Assembly (NCBI GenBank): GCA_035291645.1
Contig: DATDRQ010000077.1
Span: forward strand, 1 to 57,477
Origin: Anaerolineales bacterium
GTDB taxonomy: Bacteria > Chloroflexota > Anaerolineae > Anaerolineales > UBA4823
Length of the DNA stretch: 57,477 bases
Direction: 5' to 3'
Program-made: the position numbers and the translations under genes
In this document: in pieces, positions 20,218 through 49,281 of the stretch
Layout of the letters: each line of letters opens with the position of its first letter
Numbering within the stretch: position 1 is the first letter of the stretch
The notes under the pieces: generated by a model
Databases searched by the model: none
What the model was told of the DNA's origin: nothing
Seen by the model: the letters and a program-made list of their open reading frames with translations, nothing else

Positions 20218-20629
20218 CCGCAGGATCCGGTCTTTCCAGACAGGAGGTTTACCAGGCGGGTCAACTTGCGAAACTGCAAGCGCTTTCCATTTTGCCAGGT
20301 GGTACAATTCTAACGCATCTGGATTGACGACCGCGCAGGATTTTAATAACTCCACCACGCATATCCGAGGGATCGACCGCCGAGCCGGTGGTCGAGGCTT
20401 CGAAAAGGCAAACCTATCGTGAGATGGGGACGCAAAGCCAAGGATCTCTGCCGAGATAGCCTGGCTGCCGATGAGCTCATCGTCGTTTTTGAGGCAAATT
20501 GTGCAGGAGGTCGGCTGGAGACAGCCTGGTTACCGAAAAGTCTGGCTTGAGGAGGCGAGAACCTGCTCTCATCAAGAAAGGCTTTTTTATTTTAGGCATT
20601 GTTATCTTTCTGTAGGGAGGGTTGAGCAA

Positions 20630-26671: not shown

Positions 26672-29600
26672 CTATGCATTTTGGGTAACTGGCCGGAGGT
26701 TGTGCACCAGGTTAAGGGCGACCAGCGCTGCCAGCTGGCGGTGGATCAACAGATCGTCTGGCGCCAGATCGGCTGCCCGGCGGAGCATGTTTTCAGCCCC
26801 CGGGTAATCCCGGCTGGCCTTGAGAGCCAGGCCGGCCTGCAGGTAAGGGCGCGGGTCGCGCGGAGAGACCGCCATAGCCTTCTGGTAGGTCTGAAGAGCC
26901 AGGGCTGGCTGCCGGCGGTCGACCTGGGTGGCGCCCAACTCCAGGTAAGTTTCGATCTCGCGAGGCGCCAGCCGGCTGGCTTCGCTCAGGTGGTGAATGG
27001 CCTGGTCGAGCTGTCCGGATTTGCGCAGCAGTCTTCCCAGCTGCAGGTGCAGTTCCGCTTGCTGCTCTGCGGAAATACCCCGCCCCCCGTTGCGCAGACC
27101 GTGTTGGGCAGCCTGGATGGCGGCCTCTGCCTGCCCGGCGCGGGCCAGCGAGTGCGCCAGGAGGGCCAGGATGCTGGCCTCATCTGGGTAACGGTTGACC
27201 AAATCGGCCAATGATTCGAGCGCGGCCTGCTGGCCGCGTGAGCAATCCAGCAAGTTAACCCTTTCGAGCAGGAGGGGCAATGGATCTACAGCCAGCGGGA
27301 TGGCGCGCTCGATGATGTCCAACGCCTCTTCTGAGCAGCCCATTTGCAGCAGGGCTTTCCCGAGCAGGTGAAGCGCCTGGGGTTGGTCCGGCTCGAGTTG
27401 CAGCACCTGTTCGGCGTATTCCTGGGTGGTTTGCGGGTCGCCCTCCTTCAAGGCGATCTCACCCCGCATGAGCATAGGCCCAAGATTGCCTGGAGCCAGG
27501 CCGATGGCGGTTTCGGCGCTCCTGGCAGCCTCGGGGAGGTCACCATTCGCCAGATAAGCCCGGGCCAGCGCCAGGGCGGGCTCCAGGGCAGTCGGGTCGA
27601 TCCGCCGGGCGTGCTCCAAAGCACGCACGGCGCGCCGGGTTTCGCCGTTTTGTAGTAAAGTCTCACCCAGGGCCAGGTGGTGGGCCAAGTGACCCGGTTC
27701 CAGATGGACAGCCTGTTCCAGGTGGTGGATGGCAACAGAGACATCCTCTTGATCGATCTGGATCTGGGCAGCCAGGGCATGCCAGCGCGGCTCCTCCGGC
27801 CACAGGGCCAACGCAGTCTGCAGCGCGTGCAGGCAGGCGGCGGTATCGCCATCCTGGTTGGCTAGGCGTGCTAATAAGATGTGATGGCAGGGTTGGTTTG
27901 GCTGGCGGCTGAGGGCGGCGTTGATGGCAGCCAGCCCATCCCGGACCTGCTCCGGCGTACTGCCCAGAGAGTTCAGCGCCAGAGCAACCTGTACCTGGAC
28001 CTGTGGGTGGAGCGGGGCGCTCCCGGCCTCTGCCTGCGCCATGCGGTAAACCTGCAGGACGTGTTCCAGCTCTCCACAGCGCCGGTGAGCAGCGATAACC
28101 GCTGCGAAGTCATCCGGGTGGGTCGCCAGGTGTTCCAGCGCCTGCAGGCTGTCCCGGCTGTTATGGAAGATCACCTGCCCGCGGGCGGTCCACCGGCGTG
28201 ATTGCATGGAACGGGCGGGTTGGGTTTCACTCGGCGCGTACCGCTGGGCATTCTGGAGAGCTTCTCGGAACTCCTGGTAGGTCTCTTCGGAGAGGGCCTC
28301 CTCACCTGGAGCGTGCACTTCGACCTCCAGATCCTGGCACAGACTCTGGTATTCCGCTCGCAGGGTTAAGGCGCGAACGATCTGCAGGTGCAGGTAAGGC
28401 TCGTGGGGGGCGTATGTCGCCGCGCGCCGGATCAGGTTTAGCCCGATCTCCCATTCTTGCAGGTCGAGGGCTGCCAGACCGGCGCCCAGCAGCGCCGAAC
28501 TATCCATCGCTTGACCGCTAGACTGCACGTCCTGTTCGGACTTCTCTAGAGTCTGGATTGCGACTTGCAGCGTGTTCAGGGCGATGCTGGCATCGCCTCG
28601 CCGGTAAGCCAGGCGCGCCTGCAAGGACAGCACGCGCGCTGCAGACGGGTCGAACTCCATGGCGGCGGTCAGCGCTTCAGCCGCGGCGACTTCTTCCTCC
28701 TGTTCGAGGGCCAGCTCGGCTGCCAGGCAGGCTCCACCTGCCGGGAAATCGTCCGGCAAAGGCAGGGGGATCTGCAGTCGAGCCTGGTCGTTTCGCAGGA
28801 CTGCCCGAGATAATTCTGCCGCGAGCGCCAAAGCCTGGCTGACTTCCCCGGTGACCGGTGCGCCTCTCCAGGCAGCCAGGGCGCGCTCGACATGGTCGAT
28901 GGCTGCCACCAGATCGCCCTGGGAGCGCATCAGCCGGGCGAGGCGAAAATGGGCGGCGGGCTGGTCGGGTTCGATGTTGAGGGCATGTTCCAGGCAGGCC
29001 TGAGCAGCCTGGGGCCGGCCGATCTTGACCAGCAGGTCGGCCCGGTTTAGCTGCAGCTCCCCGTTGTGCGGATCGGACTGAACAGCCCGTTCAAGCAACT
29101 CCAGAGCCTGCTCCGGATTGCCAGACAGGCGGTGGGCATCCGCCAGGTCGCGCAGGATCGCAGGTGGGTTGGTGCCGGACTCGACCAGGGCGCGTTCGAA
29201 TGCGGCGACTGCCGCGCAGGCTTCACCCAGTTCGATCAGCCCTACCCCCGCACGGTGAAGGTCATTCGGATTTACGGATGTATCGCCGATCTGGCGATAA
29301 CTGTTTGTAGCCCCTTGCCGGTCACCGCTGGCATGCTGGATCTGGGCGAGCTTCAGGAGAAGGTCAGAGCGCTTGGGTTCGAGCTGGATTGCCCGGGTGA
29401 GGGTCTTGATCGCTTCCGGCTTCGATCCTAATTCAACCATCTGTCCGGCAAACCAGGCCAGCACGTCGACGTCATCGGGGACCTGCTGGACTGCGCTGTG
29501 GGCTGCTTGGGCGGCCTCCTCAGAAAGGTTAATGGCAGTGTAAGCCTGGGCGAGCACCATGAAGACTTCGGGATCCGGTTTGTCAACCTGAGCGGCGTCG

Positions 29601-32212
29601 TGTAAAGCCGCGACCGTGGTCTCCGGCTGTCCTAACTTTAACGCCGTCCGTCCCAATCCCAAGGACAGGGGGTCTTTCCAGTGTGGGTCGTCTGCCAGAC
29701 CGGCCTCCAGTGCCTGGTAATAGGCCTGCAATGCGCCTGGCAGGTCGCCGCTCTGTTCCAACGCCTGCCCGAGCAGGGCTTGAGCGGTCTTGCGGACGAC
29801 CGGCAGATAGGACCCCTGGTCAATTTTTCGAACCGGTTCGCCATCCAATTCCTCGCCGAGATGGTCAACAACCGGCTCGGTCAATCGCAGCACGCGTTGG
29901 AGCGCTTGGGCGGCTTCTTCCGGCTGTGAACTGACCTTCAACAGGCTCTCGGCGTAGTCCAGGCTGGGATGCGGGTCGTGGGGAGCAGAGTTCACCGCCA
30001 CCGCCAGCGGGCTGAGAGCTGCCTGGGGATCGCCCTGGTCGAGCAGCAGGCGAGCGTAGGCATAAGCCAGTCCTGGGTAAGAAGGGAAATCCAGGAAGGT
30101 GTTCTCGAGAACCTGGCGGGCTTTTTCTGGATGGCCGAGTTGAACCAGGATGCTTCCATAAAGGAGAGCGATGCGAGGCTGGAGAGTAGCGTCCTGTTCG
30201 GCCGGGTTTTGCTTCCCTGCCCGGCCTTTGCCAAGACGGCGGCGGTTGCGCAGGCCCGGTCGCTCGCAGGCCAGTTCGTATGCCTTGCGCAGATTGGTCT
30301 GGGCCTGGGTGACGGCGTCATCCGCCAGGTAGGCCTCCGCCAGGGCCAGGTGGATGGCCGGGTCGTTCGGGACGGCGTGAGAAGCGGCGCTGAGGGTTTC
30401 GGTGGCTTTGGAGGCCTGGCCGCCGCGCTGGTAAGCGCGGGCTAGTGAGAGCCAGGGCTCAGGCTGGTGGGGTGCATGGGTTGTAGCCTGCTGGAAGTGC
30501 TCCATGGCTCCCTGCTCGTCCCCCTGAGCTGCCAGGGCTTCACCAAAGATGGCCTGGGTGAGGCCGTCCTCAGGATTCCGGTCCAGAGCCATCTGACAGG
30601 CTTGAATCGCCCGTTCTGGGTCGCCAGCGTTCAGGCTGCAGCTGGCTAGCGCTCGTAGATCGGAGTCGGTAGGCCAGATCGATTCTTCGGCCGGCGTGAA
30701 GCGCGGCGCCAGTAACTCGCTCCTTTCATGCAATGCAGCCTCCCACTCGCCGGCCCGCTCCAGGCTGGTCGCCAGCAGGCGGCGGTAGGCCGGATCGGCA
30801 GGTTGGAGGGCGACTGCCAGATGAGCGGTATTCACCGCCCCAGTCTCATCGCCTGCCCGCAGATCGGCTAGAGAGAGCGTGGCGAGACGGGCAGCGCTGG
30901 CCGGTTCTAGGCGGCAGGCCAGCGCGGCGGCGCGTTGGGCTTCTTCGAACAGAGACAGCTCCTGGCAGAAGCCGGTCAGGTGAATGAACCAGGGCAGGGC
31001 GCTCTCGATATCCGCTGGAGTGGGGGGTAGGTCGAGAGGCTGGCGATCTTTTTCAGCCAGGTAGGCCAGCGCCTGGCGAGCCGACTGCCGGGCTGAAGAC
31101 CTGTTCCCCGCCCGGTTCGCCTGGTGGGCCAGGATCACCGCCTGGGCTGGGCCGGCTTCCTCCAGGCTGGAGGCGGGCAGCAGGGCAGCGGCATCCTCAA
31201 CCCGCCCGGCCTCGAGCATGCCGGCCAGCAGTCTGGCGGATGGGAGGGCTGTCTGCGGCGCGGAGAGCGCTTCCTGCCAGGCGACCAGGGCTCCATCCAG
31301 GTCTTCTTCTTGGAAGGCTGTGCTGATCTGTGCGGCCAGCTCGGCCTGTAGCTGGCGGGAAATCTTGACCGCTTCGGCGCGGGCTGCGACAGAATGGGAG
31401 GTCTGCCCGGCGATTGCCTGTAAATCCGCCTGCGCTACCAGACCGGTGAGGGCGGCGATCTGAGCGTTTATCCCCACCTCTCCAGCTTCCTGATTTTCTG
31501 GCGGAACTGATAGCACCCGGGTGGCGAGCCTGGCTGCCTGGGATGGGCGGTGGGCTGCCAGCTGCCGGACCAGATCTGCCCCAGCTTGCGGTTCGAGTTT
31601 CTCAATTAATGTGGTAAAAAACCGCTCCTGTTCGGCAGCCGGCAATGGCTGGCACAGGACTGTATTCACCGCCAGCATGCGCAGGGCTGGCTTTTCGCTG
31701 CTGGCGAGCGCCCGTACCAGGGCCTGGCGATCTCCGCAGAGTCCGAATATTATGGTGAAAGATGAGCTCCACTGCGAATAGATCGCCGCCTCACCGCTAT
31801 GGGTCGCCCGGAGGCTGGCGACCGACCCCTCCCAGGAACCGGTCGAGCGGCGCTGGTCATATAGAGCGATCGCCAGCAAGGCCGCCTGGGCCAGGGCTTG
31901 ATCGTCCTCTGCGCCCGCGTACTGGGGGGATTTCTCTTGAGCTTCGAGCGCCTGGAGCGCCTGGTAGCGCAGCTGCGGATCGGGTGGGGCGTCGACTTCC
32001 GGCATGGGCTGGTTTAGCGCCAGGAAAGCCAGGTTGGCGGGCGACCAGGACTGCGGATTGGTTCCCAGGGCCTGCAAGGCGCGCGCGCCGAAGTCTTCGT
32101 CCTGAAGCAGGTCCCAGATGCGGGAGTCCTGGCGCAGAGCGGGGATCACCCAAGGCCAGCTGGCCTCGGGCAGGGCGGATTTCAAAGCGACGATAAATGA
32201 GGTTTGGGCCAT
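26672..32212 (-). CDS. Giant all-TPR repeat protein (1846 aa)
   Basis: A single ORF with continuous A/L/E/Q-rich 34-residue-type repeats (..A...Y..AL...P....A...LG......G....A...) and no recognisable catalytic domain. Its stop is 9 nt before the next ATG. Confidence 0.85.
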   Translation of the reverse strand: MAQTSFIVALKSALPEASWPWVIPALRQDSRIWDLLQDEDFGARALQALGTNPQSWSPANLAFLALNQPMPEVDAPPDPQLRYQALQALEAQEKSPQYAGAEDDQALAQAALLAIALYDQRRSTGSWEGSVASLRATHSGEAAIYSQWSSSFTIIFGLCGDRQALVRALASSEKPALRMLAVNTVLCQPLPAAEQERFFTTLIEKLEPQAGADLVRQLAAHRPSQAARLATRVLSVPPENQEAGEVGINAQIAALTGLVAQADLQAIAGQTSHSVAARAEAVKISRQLQAELAAQISTAFQEEDLDGALVAWQEALSAPQTALPSARLLAGMLEAGRVEDAAALLPASSLEEAGPAQAVILAHQANRAGNRSSARQSARQALAYLAEKDRQPLDLPPTPADIESALPWFIHLTGFCQELSLFEEAQRAAALACRLEPASAARLATLSLADLRAGDETGAVNTAHLAVALQPADPAYRRLLATSLERAGEWEAALHERSELLAPRFTPAEESIWPTDSDLRALASCSLNAGDPERAIQACQMALDRNPEDGLTQAIFGEALAAQGDEQGAMEHFQQATTHAPHQPEPWLSLARAYQRGGQASKATETLSAASHAVPNDPAIHLALAEAYLADDAVTQAQTNLRKAYELACERPGLRNRRRLGKGRAGKQNPAEQDATLQPRIALLYGSILVQLGHPEKARQVLENTFLDFPSYPGLAYAYARLLLDQGDPQAALSPLAVAVNSAPHDPHPSLDYAESLLKVSSQPEEAAQALQRVLRLTEPVVDHLGEELDGEPVRKIDQGSYLPVVRKTAQALLGQALEQSGDLPGALQAYYQALEAGLADDPHWKDPLSLGLGRTALKLGQPETTVAALHDAAQVDKPDPEVFMVLAQAYTAINLSEEAAQAAHSAVQQVPDDVDVLAWFAGQMVELGSKPEAIKTLTRAIQLEPKRSDLLLKLAQIQHASGDRQGATNSYRQIGDTSVNPNDLHRAGVGLIELGEACAAVAAFERALVESGTNPPAILRDLADAHRLSGNPEQALELLERAVQSDPHNGELQLNRADLLVKIGRPQAAQACLEHALNIEPDQPAAHFRLARLMRSQGDLVAAIDHVERALAAWRGAPVTGEVSQALALAAELSRAVLRNDQARLQIPLPLPDDFPAGGACLAAELALEQEEEVAAAEALTAAMEFDPSAARVLSLQARLAYRRGDASIALNTLQVAIQTLEKSEQDVQSSGQAMDSSALLGAGLAALDLQEWEIGLNLIRRAATYAPHEPYLHLQIVRALTLRAEYQSLCQDLEVEVHAPGEEALSEETYQEFREALQNAQRYAPSETQPARSMQSRRWTARGQVIFHNSRDSLQALEHLATHPDDFAAVIAAHRRCGELEHVLQVYRMAQAEAGSAPLHPQVQVQVALALNSLGSTPEQVRDGLAAINAALSRQPNQPCHHILLARLANQDGDTAACLHALQTALALWPEEPRWHALAAQIQIDQEDVSVAIHHLEQAVHLEPGHLAHHLALGETLLQNGETRRAVRALEHARRIDPTALEPALALARAYLANGDLPEAARSAETAIGLAPGNLGPMLMRGEIALKEGDPQTTQEYAEQVLQLEPDQPQALHLLGKALLQMGCSEEALDIIERAIPLAVDPLPLLLERVNLLDCSRGQQAALESLADLVNRYPDEASILALLAHSLARAGQAEAAIQAAQHGLRNGGRGISAEQQAELHLQLGRLLRKSGQLDQAIHHLSEASRLAPREIETYLELGATQVDRRQPALALQTYQKAMAVSPRDPRPYLQAGLALKASRDYPGAENMLRRAADLAPDDLLIHRQLAALVALNLVHNLRPVTQNA

Positions 32213-32269: not shown

Positions 32270-32593
32270 TTAACTGATCCGGATCACCAACCAGCAGGCG
32301 GCGAGCATCAAGATCAGACCCAGGGCGGAGAGAAACACGCCGATCCCGGCCGCAGTCCGCACCAGGTCATTGGTGGCACCGAGCAGAGCCGAGGCGTTGC
32401 CGACCAAACCGGCGACTTCCTCCGCCATCCCCTTACGGGCCAGCTGAGCGGTCTGGTTCGCCAGGCTGCGCACCTCGCGCCCGGCTGAGCGGACCAACAG
32501 GACGAACATGCCGATCGACAGGCTGATCGCGCCGAAGAGGAAGAGGCCGAGGGCCATTGCCAGCTGTACTTCGATGAGCGTGAACGAGGTCAT
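32270..32593 (-). CDS. Small membrane protein (two terminal TM helices plus a central helical segment)
   Basis: 107 aa. Strong SD AAGGAGGAG 3 nt before the ATG. Confidence 0.7.
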   Translation of the reverse strand: MTSFTLIEVQLAMALGLFLFGAISLSIGMFVLLVRSAGREVRSLANQTAQLARKGMAEEVAGLVGNASALLGATNDLVRTAAGIGVFLSALGLILMLAACWLVIRIS

Positions 32594-32606
32594 ATACTCC
32601 TCCTTG

Positions 32607-33374
32607 TTATCGGGAGGCTCCGAGCAATGGAAACTCGCAGTCTACCATCAATCTGCCCGCCTCCGTCAGGGGCCAGGCGCGGGCGGCCTGGGCCAGGTCG
32701 AGGTCTGTCCGCAGATGAGGGGAAATGCCCCTTACCAGGCGTTGAACTTCCGGTCCGGAGAGCAGCCCACTGGACTGGCGGCAGGCGCTCGCCAGAAGCT
32801 CTGTCTGGCTTTGCTGGACCGTGATGCCATCCCCTTTCGTTCCCGCCAACCCGGCAACCTCGATAGGGCGTGCTTCCCTGGATATCGCCGGTCCCAGGCG
32901 GTTCAACAGGTCCAGGATGGAGGTCAGGCTGGTCGTATCGAGGACCACGTAACCAGTCCACCACAAACGTTCTGCGTGGAGGGAGTCCATGAAGGCTGCC
33001 ACAGGGAGGCCGCGCCGGTCGAGGGCGAACTGTTCCTCCAGTAAAGTCTCTCCCGGGACCGGGAAGACGGGCAACAAAGTCACCTCGGGCTTGCCTGGAA
33101 AGAACAGCGCCAGCCAGGCGCTTTCCAGGCGGGGAGAGGCTGCATCCAGGTCATCCACCCCGAGGATCAACCAGCTATTTTGGCCCGTGGTTGGCTGAGG
33201 GACGGATTCCAATCTAACAGAGCCTTCGTTCCCGGCCAGTCGGTTCATCGAGAGCAATGAACGCCCGATGGGGAGGCCGGCGATCAGGCCGAAGACCAGG
33301 AATAGCAGGAACAGCCTGGCATTTGCCCGGCTGTGTTTCTCTCTGTTCATCCACTCGATCCGCCTGTTCACCAT
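32607..33374 (-). CDS. Membrane-anchored, divergent LytR/CpsA/Psr (LCP)-like protein
   Basis: ATG at 33374 (alternative at 33350). N-terminal TM helix. WLILGVDDLDAASPRLESAWLALFFPGKPEVTLLPVFP and YVVLDTTSLTSILDLLNRLG follow the LCP pattern, but the usual S-I-P-R-D block is replaced. Confidence 0.6.
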   Translation of the reverse strand: MVNRRIEWMNREKHSRANARLFLLFLVFGLIAGLPIGRSLLSMNRLAGNEGSVRLESVPQPTTGQNSWLILGVDDLDAASPRLESAWLALFFPGKPEVTLLPVFPVPGETLLEEQFALDRRGLPVAAFMDSLHAERLWWTGYVVLDTTSLTSILDLLNRLGPAISREARPIEVAGLAGTKGDGITVQQSQTELLASACRQSSGLLSGPEVQRLVRGISPHLRTDLDLAQAARAWPLTEAGRLMVDCEFPLLGASR

Positions 33375-33378
33375 TGAT

Positions 33379-33651
33379 CTAGTGACTGAGTAACGCGCTG
33401 AGCAGCGCTGTGAAGAAGCCAATGCTCAACCCGGCAGCCGCCCAGCGTGCCGCCCGAGGCGCGTCCGGCGACCGAAAAAAATTGACAGCCTGCCAGGTCA
33501 TCCGGCTGGCGCTGCTGACCAGCTTCTGCAACAGGGTGGAATCGCTCAACAAATCTATCGCCAGTCGTAAAAAGCCGATCTCGATGCGTGCAGATACCTG
33601 GCGGAAATCAATCGGCGCGTGAAGGAAGGTTGTTTTCATAGGCCGGTTCAA
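33379..33651 (-). CDS. Small protein with a C-terminal TM helix
   Basis: 90 aa from the TTG at 33651, or 86 aa from the ATG at 33639. Packed between neighbours, with a 4-nt overlap or a 9-nt gap upstream and a 4-nt gap downstream. Confidence 0.45.
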   Translation of the reverse strand: MNRPMKTTFLHAPIDFRQVSARIEIGFLRLAIDLLSDSTLLQKLVSSASRMTWQAVNFFRSPDAPRAARWAAAGLSIGFFTALLSALLSH

Positions 33652-33893
33652 CGGGAAGTGGAGACTTTCAGGATCTTGCCCTGGGCGTTGGCTGTCACCC
33701 GGACGATGCGCGGGATGGATTTGCCATTGGAAGCCGTGGCAGTTCCCCGGTAGGTGAGGAGATAGGTCTGGCTCGAACTGCTGGAGTTTATCTGAGAGCC
33801 GGACTGGGTCTGGACTTTTGGCTGAATGCCTGCGACCTCCGGAAACCGGCGGTAGATCTGGGTGGAGATAGACTTCAACGCTTTGGCATCCAT
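33648..33893 (-). CDS. Small soluble protein (PepSY-like pattern), related to the C-terminus of the 935-aa peptidase
   Basis: 81 aa. SD AAGGTG ~10 nt before the ATG, which is 24 nt after the ftsZ stop. Ends RIVRVTANAQGKILKVSTSR, compared with ARLTLDSQGQVIKMVVSR at the end of the 23855..26662 product. Confidence 0.6.
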   Translation of the reverse strand: MDAKALKSISTQIYRRFPEVAGIQPKVQTQSGSQINSSSSSQTYLLTYRGTATASNGKSIPRIVRVTANAQGKILKVSTSR

Positions 33894-33917: not shown

Positions 33918-35126
33918 TTATGATAAGGACGCACCGGGTGGCTGGTCTACCTGGCGGGCGCGCCGTCGCAGGAAGGCCGGCACGTCCAGATCGTTGGCGG
34001 CGATGCGTGGCATGCTGTAATTCACCGTTACGGTCGACTGGCTGACAGGCTCCGCTGTGAGTACAGGGGTTGGTGCAGTGGCAGGCTCAGCAGCCAGCAC
34101 CGTTCGCCGGTTCAGCTGGGTGGAAACCCCGGAAAAGACTTCGTCTAGCGTGGGAGCGCCCAGGCCGGTGATGACCAGGATCACCTGGGCGCGGCCTTCC
34201 ATGCGCTCGTCGTGGGTCACGCCGAGTACGATCTCGGTCTGGCTGCCGATCTGGTGGTGCAGGTTAGTCAGCACTTCGCTGATCTCGACCAGGCTCAGGT
34301 CCTTACCACCGGTAAAGTTGGCGATCACCCCGGCGGCTTGTTCGAGCGAGATGCTCTCGAGCAGCGGGTGGTGCAGGGCCTGCTCGATGGCTATGTGTGC
34401 CTTATCCTCTCCATGACCATGACCGATAGACATCAACGCGCCGCCGCCCAGTTTCATCAAGCGCCGAATGTGGGCAAAGTCGACGTTGATCAGGCCGGGT
34501 TCGGTGATCAGCTCGGTGATGCCCTGGACTGCCTGGCGGAGCACGTCGTCGGCCAGGCGGAAAGCCAGGTCCAGAGGCAGGTCGCGCGCGGCGACGTACA
34601 GCAAGCGGTCGTTGGGGATCGAAATGAGCGTATCGGTATGCGGGCGCAGGGTGGATAATCCCTGGGAGGCGTTGCGCTGGCGGCGGCCCATTTCAAATGA
34701 GAAGGGCGTGGTGACGATGGCGATGGTCACTGCACCGACAGAACGGGCGGCGCGGGCGGCGATCGGGATCGAGCCGGTACCGGTGCCGCCGCCCATGCCG
34801 GCGGTCAGGAAGACCATATCGGCCCCTTCCAGGGCTGCGGCGATCTCCTTCTCACTCTCCTCTGCGGCGGCGCGGCCGACCTCAGGGTTACCGCCGGCTC
34901 CCAGCCCGCGTGTGGTGCGTGGGCCGAGCTGGATCCTGACCGGCGCCAGGCTGGTCTGCAAGGCCTGGTAGTCGGAGTTGGCCGCGATGAACTCCACGCC
35001 GTCCAGGCCAAGCTCGATCATGCGATTTATGGCGTTGCTGCCACCCCCACCCAGACCGAGCACTTTGAGTTTCGGCGGGGGAGCTGCGTATATTTCGTTC
35101 GATTTCATCTCGCTCGTTTCGATCAT
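33918..35126 (-). CDS. ftsZ: Cell division tubulin homologue FtsZ
   Basis: 402 aa. GLGGGGSNAINRM, tubulin signature GMGGGTGTGS, C-terminal peptide DLDVPAFLRRR. SD GAGGTGGAGG before the ATG. Confidence 0.95.
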   Translation of the reverse strand: MIETSEMKSNEIYAAPPPKLKVLGLGGGGSNAINRMIELGLDGVEFIAANSDYQALQTSLAPVRIQLGPRTTRGLGAGGNPEVGRAAAEESEKEIAAALEGADMVFLTAGMGGGTGTGSIPIAARAARSVGAVTIAIVTTPFSFEMGRRQRNASQGLSTLRPHTDTLISIPNDRLLYVAARDLPLDLAFRLADDVLRQAVQGITELITEPGLINVDFAHIRRLMKLGGGALMSIGHGHGEDKAHIAIEQALHHPLLESISLEQAAGVIANFTGGKDLSLVEISEVLTNLHHQIGSQTEIVLGVTHDERMEGRAQVILVITGLGAPTLDEVFSGVSTQLNRRTVLAAEPATAPTPVLTAEPVSQSTVTVNYSMPRIAANDLDVPAFLRRRARQVDQPPGASLS

Positions 35127-35213: not shown

Positions 35214-36536
35214 TTATTCAGCCAGGAATGTTGCAATACTTGTGCCATCTCCACCGATCCGTTCGACGTAGCAGCCCGCAGCACGCAGGGCGTTCAGGCT
35301 GTCTTCCGGAAAGTCGTGCTCGTTGCCGACCACGGTAACTCGCTCGGCCAGCAGGGCGTCCTCCAACGAAAATCCCAGGGTCGGGCGAAATTTCTTCAGG
35401 TATGGGCGCACTGCAGTCAGGTGCCAGTCGGAAACCCCCCAGGTATAGGCCGGCAGGAGCAAGTAATGGGCGATCGGGTGGGCGCGCTTGCGGATCGGTG
35501 TGAAGCTGTGACCGGAGGCGGTCTTCTCAAGTCGAGAGGCCTGGTGGCGCAGGGCGATCACCGCCGGGTGATGCCCACCGCCGGCGCGGAACCAGGCCCG
35601 CTTCGCCTGGGGATCGTCCTCCCGGCAGCCCAACAGCGAGAAGTGCCCTGCCAGGACTTCCGCCGGGATTACACAGGACGGCGTTTCATTTGCACCGTGA
35701 GCAGTTTGTTCGGCCTGGACTGAAAGCAGGGAATGGGCGATCTGTTGGGCCTGCTGGACCTGGGCGATCTCGTCTTGAGACGGGTTGAATGCGTCGATTC
35801 CGAACAACAGGATGGGCCGCGTGCTCCCCAGGACCGCCTGGGTAATTGCCAGGTACCAGTCGAAGATGCGGAAGCCGCGCTGGTCCTGGCTGCCTGCCGG
35901 GGTAGCATACGGTCGCGAACCAGGCCAGCTCTCGGGGCCTCCCCGGCCCCAGTCCATGGGTTTCTCGCCTACCCGCGCATAAGCGGAGAGTACCAAGTCA
36001 CCGACCAGATTTTCCGGACTGCGCCGCTGCAGTCCGGCCAGAGCGGAGCACAGAAAGGCAGTATCCCAGTAGTCTCCACCAGGTTCGAGGGGCGGAAAGA
36101 CCGGGTTCAATCCTTCTCCGGCGGCGGTGACCGCCAGGGGGATGAAACGGTCCAGGAAGCGCTCGACCAGCTCGTCCTTGGCCCAGGAGTTTGCCGGCCA
36201 GGCCGATCGCCGGTTTGGCCGGTCGAACAGGATCGCGTAATGAACGCCCCAGTGAGAATAGACTGACAGGAGCATAGACAGCTGGTCGGCGTGAGTAGCG
36301 GGCTCCAACGGCAGGGAGAAATGTAGGACCGGCTCAATGCCAGCTTCCAGAAGACCCACCACGAAGCCCTCCGGGATGGCGCGGTCGTGGGGCGCGTGCA
36401 GGCTTAGCCAGGTGGCGCCCATGGCCTGCAGCTCCGGCAACCAGGTGTGCAGGTCTCCCTGGCGGTAGTGCAGGAAATCCGGGAAGTAATGGAAACCCAG
36501 GCGGGTGTTGAGGGCAGGAGTGTGGATACCGGCCAT
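35214..36536 (-). CDS. Hypothetical protein, possibly (beta/alpha)8 glycoside-hydrolase-like
   Basis: ATG at 36536, 5 nt after GGAGAG (the track ORF starts at the TTG at 36563). 440 aa. An alternating strand/helix pattern with conserved acidic and aromatic residues. The fold assignment is only a guess. Confidence 0.7.
   Translation of the reverse strand: MAGIHTPALNTRLGFHYFPDFLHYRQGDLHTWLPELQAMGATWLSLHAPHDRAIPEGFVVGLLEAGIEPVLHFSLPLEPATHADQLSMLLSVYSHWGVHYAILFDRPNRRSAWPANSWAKDELVERFLDRFIPLAVTAAGEGLNPVFPPLEPGGDYWDTAFLCSALAGLQRRSPENLVGDLVLSAYARVGEKPMDWGRGGPESWPGSRPYATPAGSQDQRGFRIFDWYLAITQAVLGSTRPILLFGIDAFNPSQDEIAQVQQAQQIAHSLLSVQAEQTAHGANETPSCVIPAEVLAGHFSLLGCREDDPQAKRAWFRAGGGHHPAVIALRHQASRLEKTASGHSFTPIRKRAHPIAHYLLLPAYTWGVSDWHLTAVRPYLKKFRPTLGFSLEDALLAERVTVVGNEHDFPEDSLNALRAAGCYVERIGGDGTSIATFLAE
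35232..35247 (-). promoter_or_regulatory. Sigma54 (-24/-12) promoter upstream of ftsZ
   Basis: The minus strand reads TGGCAC-AAGTA-TTGCA, which matches all 11 specified bases of TGGCAC-N5-TTGCW. It lies inside the last codons of the upstream CDS. Predicted TSS ~35222. Confidence 0.7.
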
Positions 36537-36598
36537 GTGTTCTCTCCAGGCAGATCGATGCAAGAGGTGTGCCAGGAGAATTGGCCGGTCGAATTTTT

Positions 36599-37765
36599 CT
36601 AGCGACCCGTGACGATCTCCGGCGGCAGGTGGCCCAGGTCGATGGCAGCCTCGTCGCAGAACAACATGGCGCGCTCGATCACGTTGCGCACCTCGCGCAC
36701 GTTGCCGGGCCAGTCGTACTCCAGCAGTGCCTGCATGGCGCGCGGGGTGATATCGGTGATATTCAGCCCCATGCGCAGGTTATTCTGGCGGATGAATAGC
36801 CCAACCAGCTCGGGAAGGTCCTCTTTGCGCTCTCTTAGAGGGGGGAGGTGCAGGTCAACGACCTTCAACCGGTAGTACAGGTCCTCGCGGAACTCGCCGC
36901 GCTTGACCATTTCCGGCAGGTTGCGATTGGAAGCTGCGATCACCATCACGTCGACCTTGATCAAATTCGTGCCGCCCACCCGGCGGAAGCTGCGTTCCTC
37001 CAAGGCGCGCAACAGTTTGGCCTGGATATCGGTAGGTGTGGAGGCGATCTCGTCCAGGAACAGAATGCCTTCGTTGGCGACCTCCATCAGGCCGGGCTTG
37101 CGCTTCTCGGCGCTGGTGAAAGCGCCGGCCTCGTAGCCAAACAGCTCGGCTTCCAATACCGTGCTCTGGATGGCGGGGCAGCTGACGTCGATAAAAGGCT
37201 TGTCACGGCGCGGCCCCATCTGGTGGATCGCCCGCGCCAGGACTTCCTTGCCGGTGCCGGTCTCCCCAGTGATCAGGACCGAGACCGAGGCAATTGCAGC
37301 CCGCCGGGCGTGGTCGAGCAGGGTCTGCATGGCGGGGCTCTTGCCGGCGACGAAGTCGATCTGTTGTGCGCTGCGGAAATGGTCCAGCTCGCGGCGCATC
37401 GAGACGATCTCACCGGCGCGCTGCAGGGATTGCAGCAGCTGGGGCATATCGATCGGTTTGCCAAGGAAATCGTGCGCCCCATTTTTCATCGCCTCGACCG
37501 CCATGTCCACCTCGCCGAAGGCTGTCATCAGGATGATCGGCGGGCGGTGGTGCATGGAGAGCGTCTCTTCCAGCAGGATGGGACCGTAGCCGTCCTGGAG
37601 CATCACGTCGAGCAGGATGATGTCGGCGCTGCCACGCTGGATCTGCCGGCGGGCTTCAGCCAGGCTGGCGGCGCCGATCACTTCATACCCGTGCGCGCTC
37701 AACAGGCTCTCAATATTCAAGCGGAAGTTCTCCTCATCATCTACCACTAAGATCGTAAAACCCAT
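36599..37765 (-). CDS. Sigma54-dependent response regulator (REC + AAA+), lacking a C-terminal DNA-binding domain
   Basis: 388 aa. REC domain (ILVVDDEE, IILLDVML). Walker A GETGTGKE, sigma54-contact loop GAFTSA, Walker B ILFLDEI, DWPGNVREVRN. The protein ends ~25 aa after that block, with no HTH_8/Fis segment. Confidence 0.9.
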   Translation of the reverse strand: MGFTILVVDDEENFRLNIESLLSAHGYEVIGAASLAEARRQIQRGSADIILLDVMLQDGYGPILLEETLSMHHRPPIILMTAFGEVDMAVEAMKNGAHDFLGKPIDMPQLLQSLQRAGEIVSMRRELDHFRSAQQIDFVAGKSPAMQTLLDHARRAAIASVSVLITGETGTGKEVLARAIHQMGPRRDKPFIDVSCPAIQSTVLEAELFGYEAGAFTSAEKRKPGLMEVANEGILFLDEIASTPTDIQAKLLRALEERSFRRVGGTNLIKVDVMVIAASNRNLPEMVKRGEFREDLYYRLKVVDLHLPPLRERKEDLPELVGLFIRQNNLRMGLNITDITPRAMQALLEYDWPGNVREVRNVIERAMLFCDEAAIDLGHLPPEIVTGR

Positions 37766-37858: not shown

Positions 37859-39832
37859 CTATTCGTTGGCCTGGATTAAGGGGAATTGCACCTGGAAAAC
37901 CGTCCCTCCGGGGACGCTGGAAACCTGGATATTGCCCTTATGGGCGGTCACGATCCGCTTGGCAATGGCTAATCCCAGACCGGTGCCGTTGCGGTTGGTG
38001 GTGAAGAACGGCTCGAAGATGCGTACCCGGATGTCCTCCGGGATGCCTGGTCCATCATCGATGATATTGACCTCCACATGCTCGCGCGCGCCTACTGTAG
38101 GTCCGGGGCGGACCTGGATCGAAAGGTTTCCACCGGAGGAACTCATCGCTTCGACGGCGTTGCCGATCAGGTTGTTGAAGACCTGTTCCAGATTGCGCAG
38201 GTCACCTAGAATGGTGGTGTTGTGGGCGCTGTTCTTGACCTCCTGGCGCACGTTGAGGCGCGCCAGCCGCGGGCGCCAGCGGTCGACCAGAGCCGGGATA
38301 ATCACAGCCAGCTCCACCGGCTCCGGCCGTGCTTCCGCCGGGCGCGAAAAGGACAGCACGGACTGCATCAGGTGGGTCAGGCGATTGCAGTCCTGGTTGA
38401 GGCGGGTGATCAAATCCTGGTTGGGGTCGTCCTGGGGCAAATTGAGCGCCAGGACCTGCAGACCGGTGCTGATGTTGTTGATCGGGTTGCGTACCTCGTG
38501 AGCGAAGATGGCGGTGATCTCGCCCAGCAAGGCGCGCTGTTCGAGCTGCTGGTTGCGCACCTGGAATTGCTCGTGCTCGCTGAGATCTCGCAAAAGGACG
38601 ATAACGCCTTCCAGGTTATCGCCGACTATCAACGGGAGCATGCGGATACGAGCCGGAAAAGCGGTGCCATCCCGGCGGTGGAGGCGCACGTCGCCCAGGT
38701 TGGGCGTCGGGATGCCCTGCAGGGCAGCCTGCAAGGCCGGGATCAAGTTGTCTGGGCCGATCAGCACATCACCCACCGGTTGGTCGAGCACCTCCCGCGT
38801 GGCGTAGCCGAGGATCTCCTCGGCAGCCGGGTTAAGGTCGACGACCCCCAATTCGCGGGTCAGGGTCAAGATACCGTCCTGGCTGGCACCCCAGACCACC
38901 GCGTTGAAGCGCGCCGCGCGCAGAGCTTCGGTTTCATTATCGACCAGGTTGGAGCGCAGGCTTTCCTGCTCGATCAGGCCGGTGATCGTGGCGGCGACGA
39001 TGCGTAGCAGGGGAAGATGATCCTCGCGCAGCAGCCCACCTGGGTCAGCGCTGATCAGCAACCCGACCACGGCTTCTTCGGCGCCGAGTGGGGCGCTGGC
39101 CAGGTAAGCCAGCTTGGCAGCCCGGGCGGCGCGTTGTAATTCGGTCGCAGCGCGCTTCCCGGGGGCCCAGGGGGTAGCCTGGAGAAGTTGGGGAACCTCT
39201 GCGGCCGGGATCTGCTCGGGGAAAACCTCTGTCTCTGCAGAGGTGGGAGACATGTTGAAGGTGTAGGCGCGCACCAGGCTGGGCTGGTTCGGGCGAGCCA
39301 GGTAGACCGCCAGCAGGCCTGCGCCGGTCAGGCGGTGGCAGGCAGCCAGAGCCAGCTGGACGGCCTGTCCGGTGCTGTGAGCTGTCGCACAGCCGGCCAG
39401 ATGAGTCAGCTCTTCCAGGCGCGCGGCCTGGCGCTGCTGCTCGGCGCGCTGCTGCTGATGGGTGGAAACCGGTTCGAGGGTGACCAGGAACCAGGATTTC
39501 TGCGGGTCGAGCCCTATGTGGGTGGCGATCACCTCGACCGATCCACCCTGGCGCAAGGGCAGGTTCGCCAGCCTGCTGCCTGGGGATAGTTGGGAGGCCG
39601 CCGCGGGATAGGCTGGCTCGAACAGCATATCAGGATCGAGCGCGGTCAGCTCCGCGCGCGTGAATGCGGTCAGCTCGGTTGCCCGCGCGTTGGCGAGCAG
39701 GAAGTGACCGGCAGGCTTATCCCATAACAGGGCAGGCTGGGGCAGCAGGTCGATCAGGGCCCCCAGGTCCGCTAGAGAGGGCTGGCGACGGTTGAGCAGG
39801 GGCAGGCTTGGGATGCGTAACGGTTTGATCAT
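37859..39832 (-). CDS. Soluble sensor histidine kinase (PAS-GAF-PAS-HisKA-HATPase)
   Basis: 657 aa with no TM helices. H-box FAHEVRNPINNI, N-box NLIGNAVEAM, G1 DDGPGIP, G2 GTGLGLAIAK. ATGA overlap with the rpoN stop. Confidence 0.9.
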   Translation of the reverse strand: MIKPLRIPSLPLLNRRQPSLADLGALIDLLPQPALLWDKPAGHFLLANARATELTAFTRAELTALDPDMLFEPAYPAAASQLSPGSRLANLPLRQGGSVEVIATHIGLDPQKSWFLVTLEPVSTHQQQRAEQQRQAARLEELTHLAGCATAHSTGQAVQLALAACHRLTGAGLLAVYLARPNQPSLVRAYTFNMSPTSAETEVFPEQIPAAEVPQLLQATPWAPGKRAATELQRAARAAKLAYLASAPLGAEEAVVGLLISADPGGLLREDHLPLLRIVAATITGLIEQESLRSNLVDNETEALRAARFNAVVWGASQDGILTLTRELGVVDLNPAAEEILGYATREVLDQPVGDVLIGPDNLIPALQAALQGIPTPNLGDVRLHRRDGTAFPARIRMLPLIVGDNLEGVIVLLRDLSEHEQFQVRNQQLEQRALLGEITAIFAHEVRNPINNISTGLQVLALNLPQDDPNQDLITRLNQDCNRLTHLMQSVLSFSRPAEARPEPVELAVIIPALVDRWRPRLARLNVRQEVKNSAHNTTILGDLRNLEQVFNNLIGNAVEAMSSSGGNLSIQVRPGPTVGAREHVEVNIIDDGPGIPEDIRVRIFEPFFTTNRNGTGLGLAIAKRIVTAHKGNIQVSSVPGGTVFQVQFPLIQANE

Positions 39833-41256
39833 GCGGCACCGGCAAGCGAGCCGGCCTGACGAAGGTGGGAGGGCAGGATGCCTTCCATGGCGCGGTATTT
39901 GGCGACCGTTCGCCGGGCTACAGAGAAGCCCAGGTGATTCAATAGATTAACGATCTCGTTGTCGCTCAGGGGGCTGGTCTCCTGATCGATAATCGTTTTC
40001 AAGACCGCACGCACGTGCAGACTGCGGTCGAAGAACTTGGACAGTGGGACGATGTGCCCGCTGGGCAGCTGCACGCTTTTCCCAGAGACGGCCCGCGAGA
40101 TGGTCGATTCGTGCACCTGTAGCTCATCGGCCAGGCTGGCGCGAGTGAGCGGCTGGAGGCATTCGTCTCCGTTCAGGATGAACTCGCGCTGCAGGACGGC
40201 GATGCGGCGCATCAGGCGGACCAGGGTGTTGTTGCGCTGCTGCAGGCACTTGACCAACAGCTCGGCCTGCTCCATGTCTGAGCGCCAGACGTCCGCTTTT
40301 TCGGGGGGCGCCTCGCCCAGCGAGTGGCGGAAAAGCGGGTTGACGCGCAGCAGCCCGGCGAAAGGCGAGATGACTTCTATCATCAATACGGTGCCCGGCC
40401 CATCCTGCAACCAGTTGATCACGACATCGGGGTAGACGTAAACGGAGGGCGTCGCCCCGTGTCCCTGGCGAATATCGCCCCACCAGGCGCGCGCCGGGAA
40501 CGGGTTCAGGTTATCGCCGATGAAAGTGGCGATCTCCTGGGCACGCCGGGCTGGGACACCCAACAGCCGTCCCAACTCGCCGTACTGGTGGCGGCTCATC
40601 AGGTCGAGCCCCTGACGGATAGCCTGGGCAGCCAGCGAGGGCACCGGGCGGGTCTCAGCCAGGACTTCCAGCTGTGCGAGCAGCGCCTCCTGCGGGGATG
40701 TCGATCCCACACCGACCGGTTCCGCCCGCTGAATCTGGTGCAGTACCTTTTCGACCCGTTCCAGAGTTGCGTGGTGGTAGCGGGCGATCTCTCCCAGGGG
40801 GACTTCGAGCAGGCCGTCCTCGTCCAGGTTGGAGAGGATGTGCGCCGCTAAACGCCTGTCCTCGAAGGCCAGTTCGGGAGCGATCTGGCGCAACACGAAG
40901 GTCGGCAGATCCTCGACCGCCTGGGGCAGGTTTTCTTCCGGCTGGTCCATGGGATCGGTCCGGCGGGAAGGGTAGAAATCCTGGCGGGGGGAGACGAACA
41001 CAATCGGCTGGTCGAGCCCGGCTGCGTGGCTGGCGGCGCAGCGCGGGCAGGCGCTGGATTCAGGAAAGGCCATCCCGCAGCCGGGGCAGCGGCGTGTGTC
41101 GCGCAGCTCCAGGGCCGGGTTTTTCGCCAGGGCGGCCTCGATCTTTTGGTCCAGCTCGGCTGCCGAGAGCTCCAGCAAGGCCATGGTTTGAGCCAGATGG
41201 GCAGTGGTCAGGGGGCGAAGAGCGGTTGTGTGGCGAAGGTGTGTGGATTGGAACAT
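39829..41256 (-). CDS. rpoN: RNA polymerase sigma-54 factor
   Basis: ATG at 41256 (the track ORF starts further upstream). Region I LTTAHLAQTMALLELSAAELDQKIEAALAKNPALE. RpoN box ARRTVAKYR near the C-terminus. A CPGC...CPRC segment follows region I. Confidence 0.92.
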   Translation of the reverse strand: MFQSTHLRHTTALRPLTTAHLAQTMALLELSAAELDQKIEAALAKNPALELRDTRRCPGCGMAFPESSACPRCAASHAAGLDQPIVFVSPRQDFYPSRRTDPMDQPEENLPQAVEDLPTFVLRQIAPELAFEDRRLAAHILSNLDEDGLLEVPLGEIARYHHATLERVEKVLHQIQRAEPVGVGSTSPQEALLAQLEVLAETRPVPSLAAQAIRQGLDLMSRHQYGELGRLLGVPARRAQEIATFIGDNLNPFPARAWWGDIRQGHGATPSVYVYPDVVINWLQDGPGTVLMIEVISPFAGLLRVNPLFRHSLGEAPPEKADVWRSDMEQAELLVKCLQQRNNTLVRLMRRIAVLQREFILNGDECLQPLTRASLADELQVHESTISRAVSGKSVQLPSGHIVPLSKFFDRSLHVRAVLKTIIDQETSPLSDNEIVNLLNHLGFSVARRTVAKYRAMEGILPSHLRQAGSLAGAA

Positions 41257-41312: not shown

Positions 41313-41328
41313 TGCAAGATTTGTGCCC
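41313..41328 (-). promoter_or_regulatory. Sigma54 (-24/-12) promoter-like motif upstream of rpoN
   Basis: The minus strand reads GGGCAC-AAATC-TTGCA, 10 of 11 consensus bases with correct GG-N10-GC spacing. The -12 GC lies 58 nt before the rpoN ATG. Over GGCACAAnTnTTGCAAC it is identical to the ftsZ site at 15 of 17 positions. Confidence 0.6.
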
Positions 41329-41494
41329 GCTAAACACGCGTATTATAAGTCGATTAACCCCCAGAATCGATTGGCTGACAGTTTTGTCAGCTTACTTCAG
41401 GACGCTTGAGCTTATAGGTCTAGTCTAGAAATACCGCTGTGCTCACCGGAATGTATCGGTGTTCTTCGCCACTGATTCTGTGACCAGGCTAATC

Positions 41495-42106: not shown

Positions 42107-42181
42107 TGGTACCCCCACCGCGACTCGAACGCGGGTTTCTACCTCCGGAGGGTAGCGCTCTATCCACTGAGCTATGGGGGC
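42107..42181 (-). tRNA. tRNA-Arg (anticodon CCG), CCA encoded
   Basis: The reverse complement folds as a cloverleaf. Acceptor GCCCCCA/TGGGGGT (pair 1-72 is G-U), D-arm GCTC/GAGC, anticodon stem CTACC/GGTAG with loop CU-CCG-GA, T-arm CCGCG-TTCGAGT-CGCGG, then ACCA. Confidence 0.9.
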
Positions 42182-42251: not shown

Positions 42252-42932
42252 CTATGAGACAAATATCAGCCGGGTGCGCTCGATCCGCGCCGCGCTTGGA
42301 TCGTAATCTAACGCCGCGAGCACCTCTTCCGGGCGGCCGGTGCGGCCTTCCTGCGCCGCCAGAAGCATGCGCAGCCGCTGGCGGCCAGCTTCATCCGGCG
42401 GCATGGGTTCCAGCGCCTCGATCAGCGGCCTCAGGTCGTAAGGCTTGCCGCGCCGTTCACGCGGTAAGCTGTCTGCCCGTAACAGGCCGTCCAACCGGTC
42501 CTCCAATCCATCGACCGGATCGAGCAGGGTAACCGTATACTCCGCCGCCTGGACGCGTGTTTGCAGGGCGGGCTCTGCCAGCTCGACCGGTTGCATCTCC
42601 AGCAGGCGCAATCCGGGCGGCAGAGCGCCCTCCAGCGCAACGCGGATCTGGTCCAGCGAGCGCCCGTTTTCCCCCAGCCAGGTGTCCATCAACTCGCAGC
42701 GGCTGGTGAAACCCAGCGGCAAGGCCGCGGCCAACTGCAGCCTGGGGCGCGGGTTGAAGCCCTGGTTGTAGATCAGGGGCAGGTCGGCCCGGCGCATGGT
42801 CCGCTCCCAGGCCTTGTGCAGGTCCAGGTGGGAGGTATAGCGCATGGCGTCGGTCTTGGCGAAGGTGAGGCGCAGGCGGATCAAATTTAATTGCTTACCG
42901 CTACCCGCTTCTTCGGCGAGACCTGCGGGCAC
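42252..42932 (-). CDS. Radical-SAM-associated protein (TIGR03936/DUF2344 family)
   Basis: 226 aa. RLRLTFAKTDAMRYTSHLDLHKAWERTMRRADLPLIYNQGFNPRP is the family hallmark. The start is uncertain because it overlaps the upstream gene by 46 nt. Confidence 0.8.
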   Translation of the reverse strand: MPAGLAEEAGSGKQLNLIRLRLTFAKTDAMRYTSHLDLHKAWERTMRRADLPLIYNQGFNPRPRLQLAAALPLGFTSRCELMDTWLGENGRSLDQIRVALEGALPPGLRLLEMQPVELAEPALQTRVQAAEYTVTLLDPVDGLEDRLDGLLRADSLPRERRGKPYDLRPLIEALEPMPPDEAGRQRLRMLLAAQEGRTGRPEEVLAALDYDPSAARIERTRLIFVS

Positions 42933-49212: not shown

Positions 49213-49281
49213 ATTCGCTCCTTGCCATCGCAGCTTGTACACCCTCGTAAAGGTACTATACCATGATCGGATCGAAACCTG

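Follow-up and report, generated by a model that had tools for sequence, protein, structure and literature searches.

The DNA considered here is a 57,477-nt contig of an Anaerolineales bacterium (DATDRQ010000077.1, assembly GCA_035291645.1), hereafter the window. On its minus strand the cell-division gene ftsZ (33918..35126) lies directly behind an uncharacterised gene of 440 codons, here called X (35214..36536; the gene caller agrees on this length). The last 12 codons of X carry an exact copy of the -24/-12 consensus of sigma-54 promoters, here called P_ftsZ (35232..35247, minus strand). Comparison with related genomes makes it very likely that this element is a genuine sigma-54 promoter, transcribing ftsZ together with the small genes behind it and belonging to a local regulon of three promoters. 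A functional sigma-54 promoter for ftsZ had been proposed in a first-pass annotation of this DNA. That proposal can now be held with considerable confidence, on the strength of conservation that does not depend on the codons and of the background density of the motif. In this lineage, signalling thus appears to act as a switch for the main gene of cell division.

A sigma-54 consensus in the last codons of X

On the minus strand, positions 35247 to 35232 read TGGCACAAGTATTGCA (TGGCAC-AAGTA-TTGCA), which matches 11 of the 11 specified bases of the consensus TGGCAC-N5-TTGCW and places the GG and GC elements exactly 10 bp apart. The element coincides with the codons GAT GGC ACA AGT ATT GCA (D430 to A435 of X), and the tail of X around it reads GGA GAT GGC ACA AGT ATT GCA ACA TTC CTG GCT GAA TAA (DGTSIATFLAE and stop). 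The C of its -12 GC, at 35233, lies 107 nt ahead of the ftsZ ATG (35126), itself preceded by the Shine-Dalgarno (SD) sequence aGAGGTGGAGG. The sequence, coordinates, GC-to-ATG distance and SD reported in the first-pass annotation all agree with the sequence as re-read.

Such matches are rare by chance. The window contains two exact copies of TGGCAC-N5-TTGCW, compared with 0.06 ± 0.24 in dinucleotide-preserving shuffles, none of which (0 of 100) reached two or more; the chance estimate made earlier, 0.03 hits per window, is of the same order. When one mismatch is allowed, a third site emerges, GGGCACAAATCTTGCA at 41328..41313 (minus strand). With two mismatches, 59 sites are observed for 64 expected, which is chance density; weaker sites of this kind were therefore left uninterpreted, as only the near-perfect ones stand out. 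The first-pass annotation had seen P_ftsZ and had overlooked both the second exact site (36574..36559) and the one-mismatch site.

The comparison covered 80 species-representative loci of Anaerolineae, 1.16 Mb in total, with X proteins 43-53% identical. The pattern GGCAY-N5-TTGCW is present at the homologous codons in 73 of the 80 loci, and the strict consensus in 51. Changes of the protein respect it: the codons that replace Asp430, whether by Asn (AAT), His (CAT) or Ser (TCT), always end in T, those that replace Ile by Leu (CTT) or Val (GTT) are always xTT, and replacement of Thr by Met or Ile produces TGGCAT, a common -24 variant. Codon choice was evaluated in 79 loci, with each locus's own synonymous usage as the null. 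The Gly codon is GGC in 73 of the 79 (34% expected), the Ile/Leu/Val codon is xTT in all 79 (31% expected), the Ala codon is GCA in 78 (22% expected), and the preceding codon ends in T in 72 (62% expected). All four features are found jointly in 66 loci, where two were expected. Within the spacer, the Ser codon (35238..35240 in the window, minus strand) is AGT in all 39 species that have Ser there, for a background usage of 9%.

A profile of synonymous sites, taken along 382 aligned codons of X, leads to the same place. Its background excess is 0.036 ± 0.095 and codons 430-436 reach 0.3-0.75, with the third base of Thr432, the first N of the spacer, free of synonymous constraint. Conservation beyond what the overlapping codons require, the test named in the first-pass annotation, is thus found both in the joint codon pattern and in a synonymous peak that falls exactly on codons 430-436. 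Since silent sites of X are nearly saturated, shared ancestry cannot explain the conservation of P_ftsZ. Over the 1.3 kb of X that precede the element, the profile shows no further block of nucleotide conservation. In two closer relatives (79% and 72% identity), which have the exact gene order of the window and gene calls that agree on start codons, the 18-nt core of P_ftsZ shows no change, in contrast to the leader that follows, which has diverged by insertions and deletions. Comparison across these loci shows that the promoter bases are under selection on the DNA and not on the protein.

Two other codons of X also display strong synonymous conservation: T31 (~36444, minus strand), where ACC accounts for 39 of ~42 Thr codons, and A314 (~35595, minus strand), where GCC accounts for 60 of 73 Ala codons. 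Each stands immediately before an invariant Trp codon, TGG, and reflects an NNC-TGG codon-pair preference; as regulatory sites they were rejected.

Probable sister promoters, start-codon geometry and regulators

The second exact site, P_X (36559..36574, minus strand; TGGCAC-ACCTC-TTGCA), is located within the 62-nt gap that separates the gene of a sigma-54 activator from X, and its GC is 24 nt ahead of the X ATG. The one-mismatch site, P_rpoN (41313..41328, minus strand; GGGCAC-AAATC-TTGCA), lies in the spacer upstream of rpoN, with 57 nt from GC to ATG. Read along the minus strand, the order is P_rpoN, rpoN, kinase, activator, P_X, X, P_ftsZ and ftsZ, so that three sense-oriented sites are distributed along one 7.4-kb stretch. 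Among the relatives, 66 of 80 loci have the motif no more than 250 nt ahead of X, with a start that is typically 39 nt from the ATG, and 21 of the 22 loci whose upstream region is complete have it ahead of rpoN. All three motifs are retained in the relatives of 72-79% identity, with flanks that diverge by insertions and deletions. The gene preceding X is on the opposite strand in 61 of 75 loci, where X and ftsZ form an independent transcription unit. P_X then stands in a divergent, presumably untranscribed spacer, which argues for a signal in DNA rather than in RNA.

The density of the motif in the 1.16 Mb leads in the same direction. On both strands together there are 88 strict matches, of which 85 occupy the three homologous positions (51 at the 3' end of X, 28 just upstream of X and 6 upstream of rpoN). 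Among the three others, one is a distal site ~235 nt upstream of X and two are truly elsewhere; an order-1 Markov simulation gives a chance expectation of 1.6 strict matches for the 80 loci. The relaxed pattern yields 16-17 matches outside the three positions, for 16.5 by chance. Matches elsewhere are at chance level, and the scatter through unrelated coding DNA, which the first-pass annotation had named as a result that would speak against the promoter, is absent.

A further regularity concerns the distance to the start codon. The P_ftsZ motif has sense orientation in all loci. Its GC lies at least 25 nt from the ftsZ ATG in each of the 74 relatives for which a start was called, apart from one erroneous call. 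In most of them ftsZ starts 25-36 nt past the GC, in 13 loci at exactly 26 nt, which corresponds to a predicted leader of ~13-25 nt. In the shortest cases 1-3 nt separate the SD from the start of transcription predicted 12 nt past the GC. P_X and P_rpoN show a minimal GC-to-start spacing of ~24-27 nt. One and the same packing of promoter and start codon at three independent sites argues for promoters, as neither a binding site nor a coding artefact would require it. For the window, the start predicted at ~35221-35222 and the leader of ~95 nt agree with the geometry given in the first-pass annotation, which holds for this genome and is atypical of the group, given the short leaders of most relatives.

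In most relatives the tail of X, ending in GDGTSIATQLAER and the stop, encodes both the promoter and the ribosome-binding site of ftsZ. Its last codons, CTG GCA GAG AGG TGA (LAER and stop), are at the same time the SD of ftsZ, for example in loci L012, L016, L022, L046 and L054, and in relatives with this tail ftsZ begins 3-9 nt past the X stop codon. In these relatives the last dozen codons of X therefore encode promoter, SD and peptide at once.

The regulators are encoded upstream of X, and Pfam domains bear out the cluster of rpoN, kinase and activator genes described earlier. The rpoN gene (39829..41256, minus strand; ATG 41256) encodes a sigma-54 of 475 aa, with a start that agrees with the gene callers in relatives. 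The protein has the activator-interacting, core-binding and DNA-binding domains and an RpoN box, ARRTVAKYR, which is intact in 23 of 24 orthologues. It scores 256 against TIGR02395, just below the cut-off of 277, and a homologue search for it returned only close relatives (60-88% identity). The following gene (37859..39832, minus strand) encodes a sensor histidine kinase of 657 aa with GAF (weak), PAS, HisKA and HATPase domains; the kinase is probably cytoplasmic, no obvious membrane-spanning segment being visible on inspection by eye. Its position between rpoN and the activator gene is conserved in relatives that have the cluster.

The activator (36599..37765, minus strand; 388 aa), a bacterial enhancer-binding protein (bEBP), consists of a receiver domain, an AAA+ sigma-54 interaction domain (PF00158, E = 1.5e-65) and a lid. 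The lid ends at residue 386 of 388, with no helix-turn-helix (HTH) DNA-binding domain after it, and NtrC/AtoC profiles match the protein only to ~385 of their ~461 positions. All 29 orthologues are likewise 388-400 aa long and without HTH. The loop corresponding to the canonical GAFTGA reads GAFTSA in the window; among the orthologues GAFTSA occurs 16 times, GAFTGA 11 times and other variants twice. The cluster of rpoN, kinase and activator genes is found upstream in ~35 of the 80 loci, abutting X or one divergent gene away.

Other conserved features accompany the sister sites. A perfect palindrome, GCTGACA-AAAC-TGTCAGC (41374..41391, minus strand), lies ~45 nt upstream of the P_rpoN motif, and a TATAAT box (41342..41347, minus strand) ~15 nt upstream of it. 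Both are kept in the relatives of 72-79% identity while their flanks diverge, and they may represent an operator and a basal sigma-70 promoter overlapping P_rpoN. A ATTATAGCACG box is present 8-10 nt before P_X in eight loci (L018, L027, L029, L031, L035, L039, L045 and L077), and a TTTTAGCACA box ~20 nt before P_rpoN in eight others (L049, L051, L057, L064, L066, L072, L075 and L076).

Proposed mechanism and competing explanations

The three sites suggest a self-contained circuit in which P_rpoN would drive rpoN, the PAS/GAF histidine kinase and the NtrC-type activator, P_X would drive the TIM-barrel protein X, and P_ftsZ would drive ftsZ. Upon sensing a signal, the cytoplasmic kinase would phosphorylate the receiver domain of the activator. 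The activator has no DNA-binding domain and, by analogy with FlgR and CtcC, would therefore act from solution, its hexamer contacting the promoter-bound sigma-54 holoenzyme via the GAFT(S/G)A loop. P_rpoN, P_X and P_ftsZ would all be opened as a result, with positive feedback on sigma-54, kinase and activator and a rise of X and FtsZ. Auto-activation of the rpoN-kinase-activator operon, and hence positive feedback on all three regulators, is the predicted role of P_rpoN. The lack of a second conserved block upstream of P_ftsZ fits with enhancer independence. The sister promoters and the missing DNA-binding domain, neither of which was noticed in the first-pass annotation, strengthen the reading it had proposed.

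Several points weigh against a sigma-54 promoter for ftsZ. The 80 loci belong to related species and their counts are not fully independent, although synonymous sites elsewhere in X are close to saturation. There is no rpoN cluster within 8 kb in 45 of the 80 loci, and the activator loop of the window is GAFTSA where the canonical sequence is GAFTGA. The fixed AGT codon of the spacer is a constraint beyond the standard sigma-54 consensus, which does not explain it. Strict dependence of ftsZ on an activated bEBP would be unusual, FtsZ being normally essential, and sigma-70 promoters missed by a crude scan may supply basal ftsZ expression.

A more far-reaching proposal would extend the sigma-54 promoter reading to the whole class. 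According to it, ftsZ would be transcribed mainly or only from P_X and P_ftsZ, under one activator without DNA-binding domain, a cytoplasmic PAS/GAF kinase and an auto-amplifying operon. In these filament-forming bacteria, septation would then have sigma-54 as its essential switch, gated by a signal, and the C-terminal peptide of X would be a dual-coding segment, dictated by promoter and ribosome-binding site and not by protein function. This extension is put forward tentatively and is rather less likely than not.

The best of the competing explanations accepts a real sigma-54 site that is not the main promoter of ftsZ. Closed complexes on P_ftsZ would act as a roadblock to read-through from P_X, or would give a conditional boost, and the bulk of the mRNA would originate elsewhere. 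FtsZ is essential in most bacteria, which counts in favour of this view, and X directly abuts ftsZ in most species, so that co-transcription from P_X is possible. Closed complexes of the sigma-54 holoenzyme are indeed stable, and for many of the intragenic sites of E. coli no transcript is known (PMC4591121). Against this, P_ftsZ is always sense-oriented and never closer than 25 nt to the ATG, with a start predicted just before the SD, and a roadblock needs no such spacing. P_X is itself of the sigma-54 type in 66 of the 80 loci, and read-through would still depend on sigma-54. A crude sigma-70 consensus scan of the minus strand between 35126 and 36600 found no promoter before X or ftsZ (weak evidence; Chloroflexota promoters may differ from that consensus). 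Overall, this explanation is unlikely.

It is far less probable still that the conserved bases represent another signal, such as a site bound by a different protein, or a processing or translational-coupling element of the mRNA at the X-ftsZ junction. The idea draws on the overlap of the ftsZ SD with the X stop codon and on conservation that slightly exceeds the textbook consensus, the spacer Ser being always AGT and the next ACA/CAA codons partly fixed. The only sequence common to the three sites is nevertheless the bipartite sigma-54 consensus with a variable spacer, and two of the three sites are in presumably untranscribed intergenic DNA. An RNA element in the ftsZ leader was rejected: in the window the 103-nt leader folds no better than shuffles (z = -0.61) and has no match in Rfam, and in the relatives of 72-79% identity it diverges with insertions and deletions.

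Lastly, a by-product of the conserved peptide GDGTSIA, combined with codon bias or shared ancestry, is scarcely credible. In its favour, G431 and A435 are invariant in 32 homologues, and codons for D-G-T and I-A are able to supply most of the motif. Synonymous choice alone, however, predicts the full pattern in 2 of 79 loci, where 66 have it, and the promoter bases survive amino acid substitutions. Silent positions over the remainder of X are close to saturation, and the two other codon outliers are explained by their NNC-TGG context and not by a run of codons. Coding constraint is rejected by per-locus synonymous usage and by the gene-wide profile alike.

Precedents, significance and neighbouring genes

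Promoters of ftsZ inside upstream genes are familiar from model bacteria, as in the internal promoters of E. coli ftsQAZ, the sigma-H-dependent promoter of B. subtilis ftsAZ and the developmental ftsZ promoter of Streptomyces. P_ftsZ resembles them in being buried in the preceding coding sequence, and the extra promoters of those systems tune FtsZ to growth phase or development. All of them use factors of the sigma-70 family and none is known to depend on sigma-54, so that they have no all-or-none need for an ATP-hydrolysing activator. Transcription of rpoN from sigma-54 promoters also has precedents, for example the nifU2-rpoN operon of Rhodobacter capsulatus, with positive autoregulation. 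The operon described here differs in that kinase and activator are included, so that all three regulators would be auto-amplified, and the motif is present in 21 of 22 species.

Transcription of a downstream gene from an intragenic sigma-54 promoter has been described in E. coli, from nagB to nagE, from rlmD to relA and from yqeC to yqeB (Bonocora et al. 2015, PMC4591121). As in those cases, P_ftsZ lies inside the upstream coding sequence in sense orientation, shows conservation across species and would serve the gene that follows. The E. coli promoters have unusually long 5' untranslated regions of 360-760 nt, a length not found for P_ftsZ, and NtrC-type activators that bind enhancers, whereas here the element occupies the final 6-14 codons and the predicted leader is ~13-95 nt. 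Its conservation, moreover, spans a class at ~45-50% protein identity, and its target is ftsZ.

Activators without DNA-binding domain are known as type Ic EBPs from the FlgS-FlgR systems of Helicobacter and Campylobacter and from CtcB-CtcC of Chlamydia (Francke et al. 2011, PMC3162934). In those systems, as here, the partner of the two-component kinase is a receiver-AAA+ activator without HTH, an architecture that implies activation from solution without an upstream enhancer. The targets of FlgR and CtcC are flagellar or late developmental genes; here they would be ftsZ and its neighbour, in the phylum Chloroflexota, and the genes of sigma-54, kinase and activator stand together in an operon that has its own sigma-54-type promoter.

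In the literature searched, no report was found of sigma-54 control of ftsZ or of sigma-54 function in Anaerolineae. The surveys of sigma-54 regulons consulted do not list ftsZ; the comparative one of 2011 does not have cell division among its enriched categories, that of 2025 mentions FtsZ only in passing, and the sole co-mention of 'Anaerolineae' and 'RpoN' is in an unrelated soil study. The kind of mechanism is already known; the new elements are ftsZ as target, the self-contained auto-amplifying module and the combination of promoter and SD in the tail of a protein.

Work on ftsZ transcription comes almost entirely from a few model phyla, in which FtsZ levels are set by sigma-70-family promoters and classical regulators. 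If the sigma-54 promoter reading is true, transcription of a division gene would be off by default and would need an ATP-driven activator controlled by phosphorylation. It would provide a concrete and testable function for sigma-54 in Chloroflexota, where none has been described, a third lineage with an enhancer-independent activator, and a clear natural case in which the coding sequence of one gene contains the promoter and the ribosome-binding site of another. The divisome of this phylum is poorly characterised, and X and the four small genes downstream of ftsZ would become candidates for division factors in it. Anaerolineae abound as filament-forming bacteria in anaerobic digesters and activated sludge, so that control of their septation is also of practical interest.

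X itself matches no Pfam or NCBIfam family. Its homologues number more than 1800, all annotated as 'hypothetical', and those with a taxon label belong to Anaerolineales or Anaerolineaceae. The predicted structure (pLDDT 77) consists of a TIM barrel and a C-terminal alpha/beta domain, with matches to glycoside hydrolases of families GH39, GH164 and GH42; these are weak (TM ~0.45), and for this reason X is not assigned a specific activity. Among the 80 loci, all those that reach far enough have ftsZ directly downstream of X.

FtsZ of the window (402 aa) is canonical. It aligns over its full length with B. subtilis FtsZ (E = 2e-93), shows the tubulin/FtsZ GTPase domain and the FtsZ_C domain in Pfam, and has an ordinary C-terminal peptide, DLDVPAFLRRR. 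Behind ftsZ come four tightly packed small genes of ~79, 86, 255 and 107 aa (32270..33893, minus strand), which match no Pfam or NCBIfam family; from their packing and from the same order in relatives, they are probably the rest of the ftsZ operon. The last of them (32270..32593, minus strand) encodes the 107-aa membrane protein, with hydrophobic segments at both ends. Homologues of this protein (54-58% identity) are found at L056:12025, L059:13202 and L030:12082, each preceded by GGCAY-N5-TTGCA, which makes it a candidate for a further member of the regulon.

The region is flanked on both sides by genes of very large TPR-repeat proteins. One of 1846 aa (26672..32212, minus strand) directly follows the ftsZ operon, a position conserved in L081-L083, and one of 1201 aa with HHH and BTAD-like segments (45637..49242, minus strand) lies on the other side. 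Upstream of the rpoN cluster are a tRNA gene (42110..42181, minus strand) and the genes of a B12-binding radical SAM protein (TIGR03960) and its TIGR03936/DUF2344 partner (42252..44812, minus strand), which also precede rpoN in L081 and L083. Further away, on the plus strand, a c-di-GMP-I-GGC riboswitch aptamer (20398..20473; Rfam RF03167, 68.9 bits, E = 3e-14) is located directly before an open reading frame of 544 aa (20471..22105).

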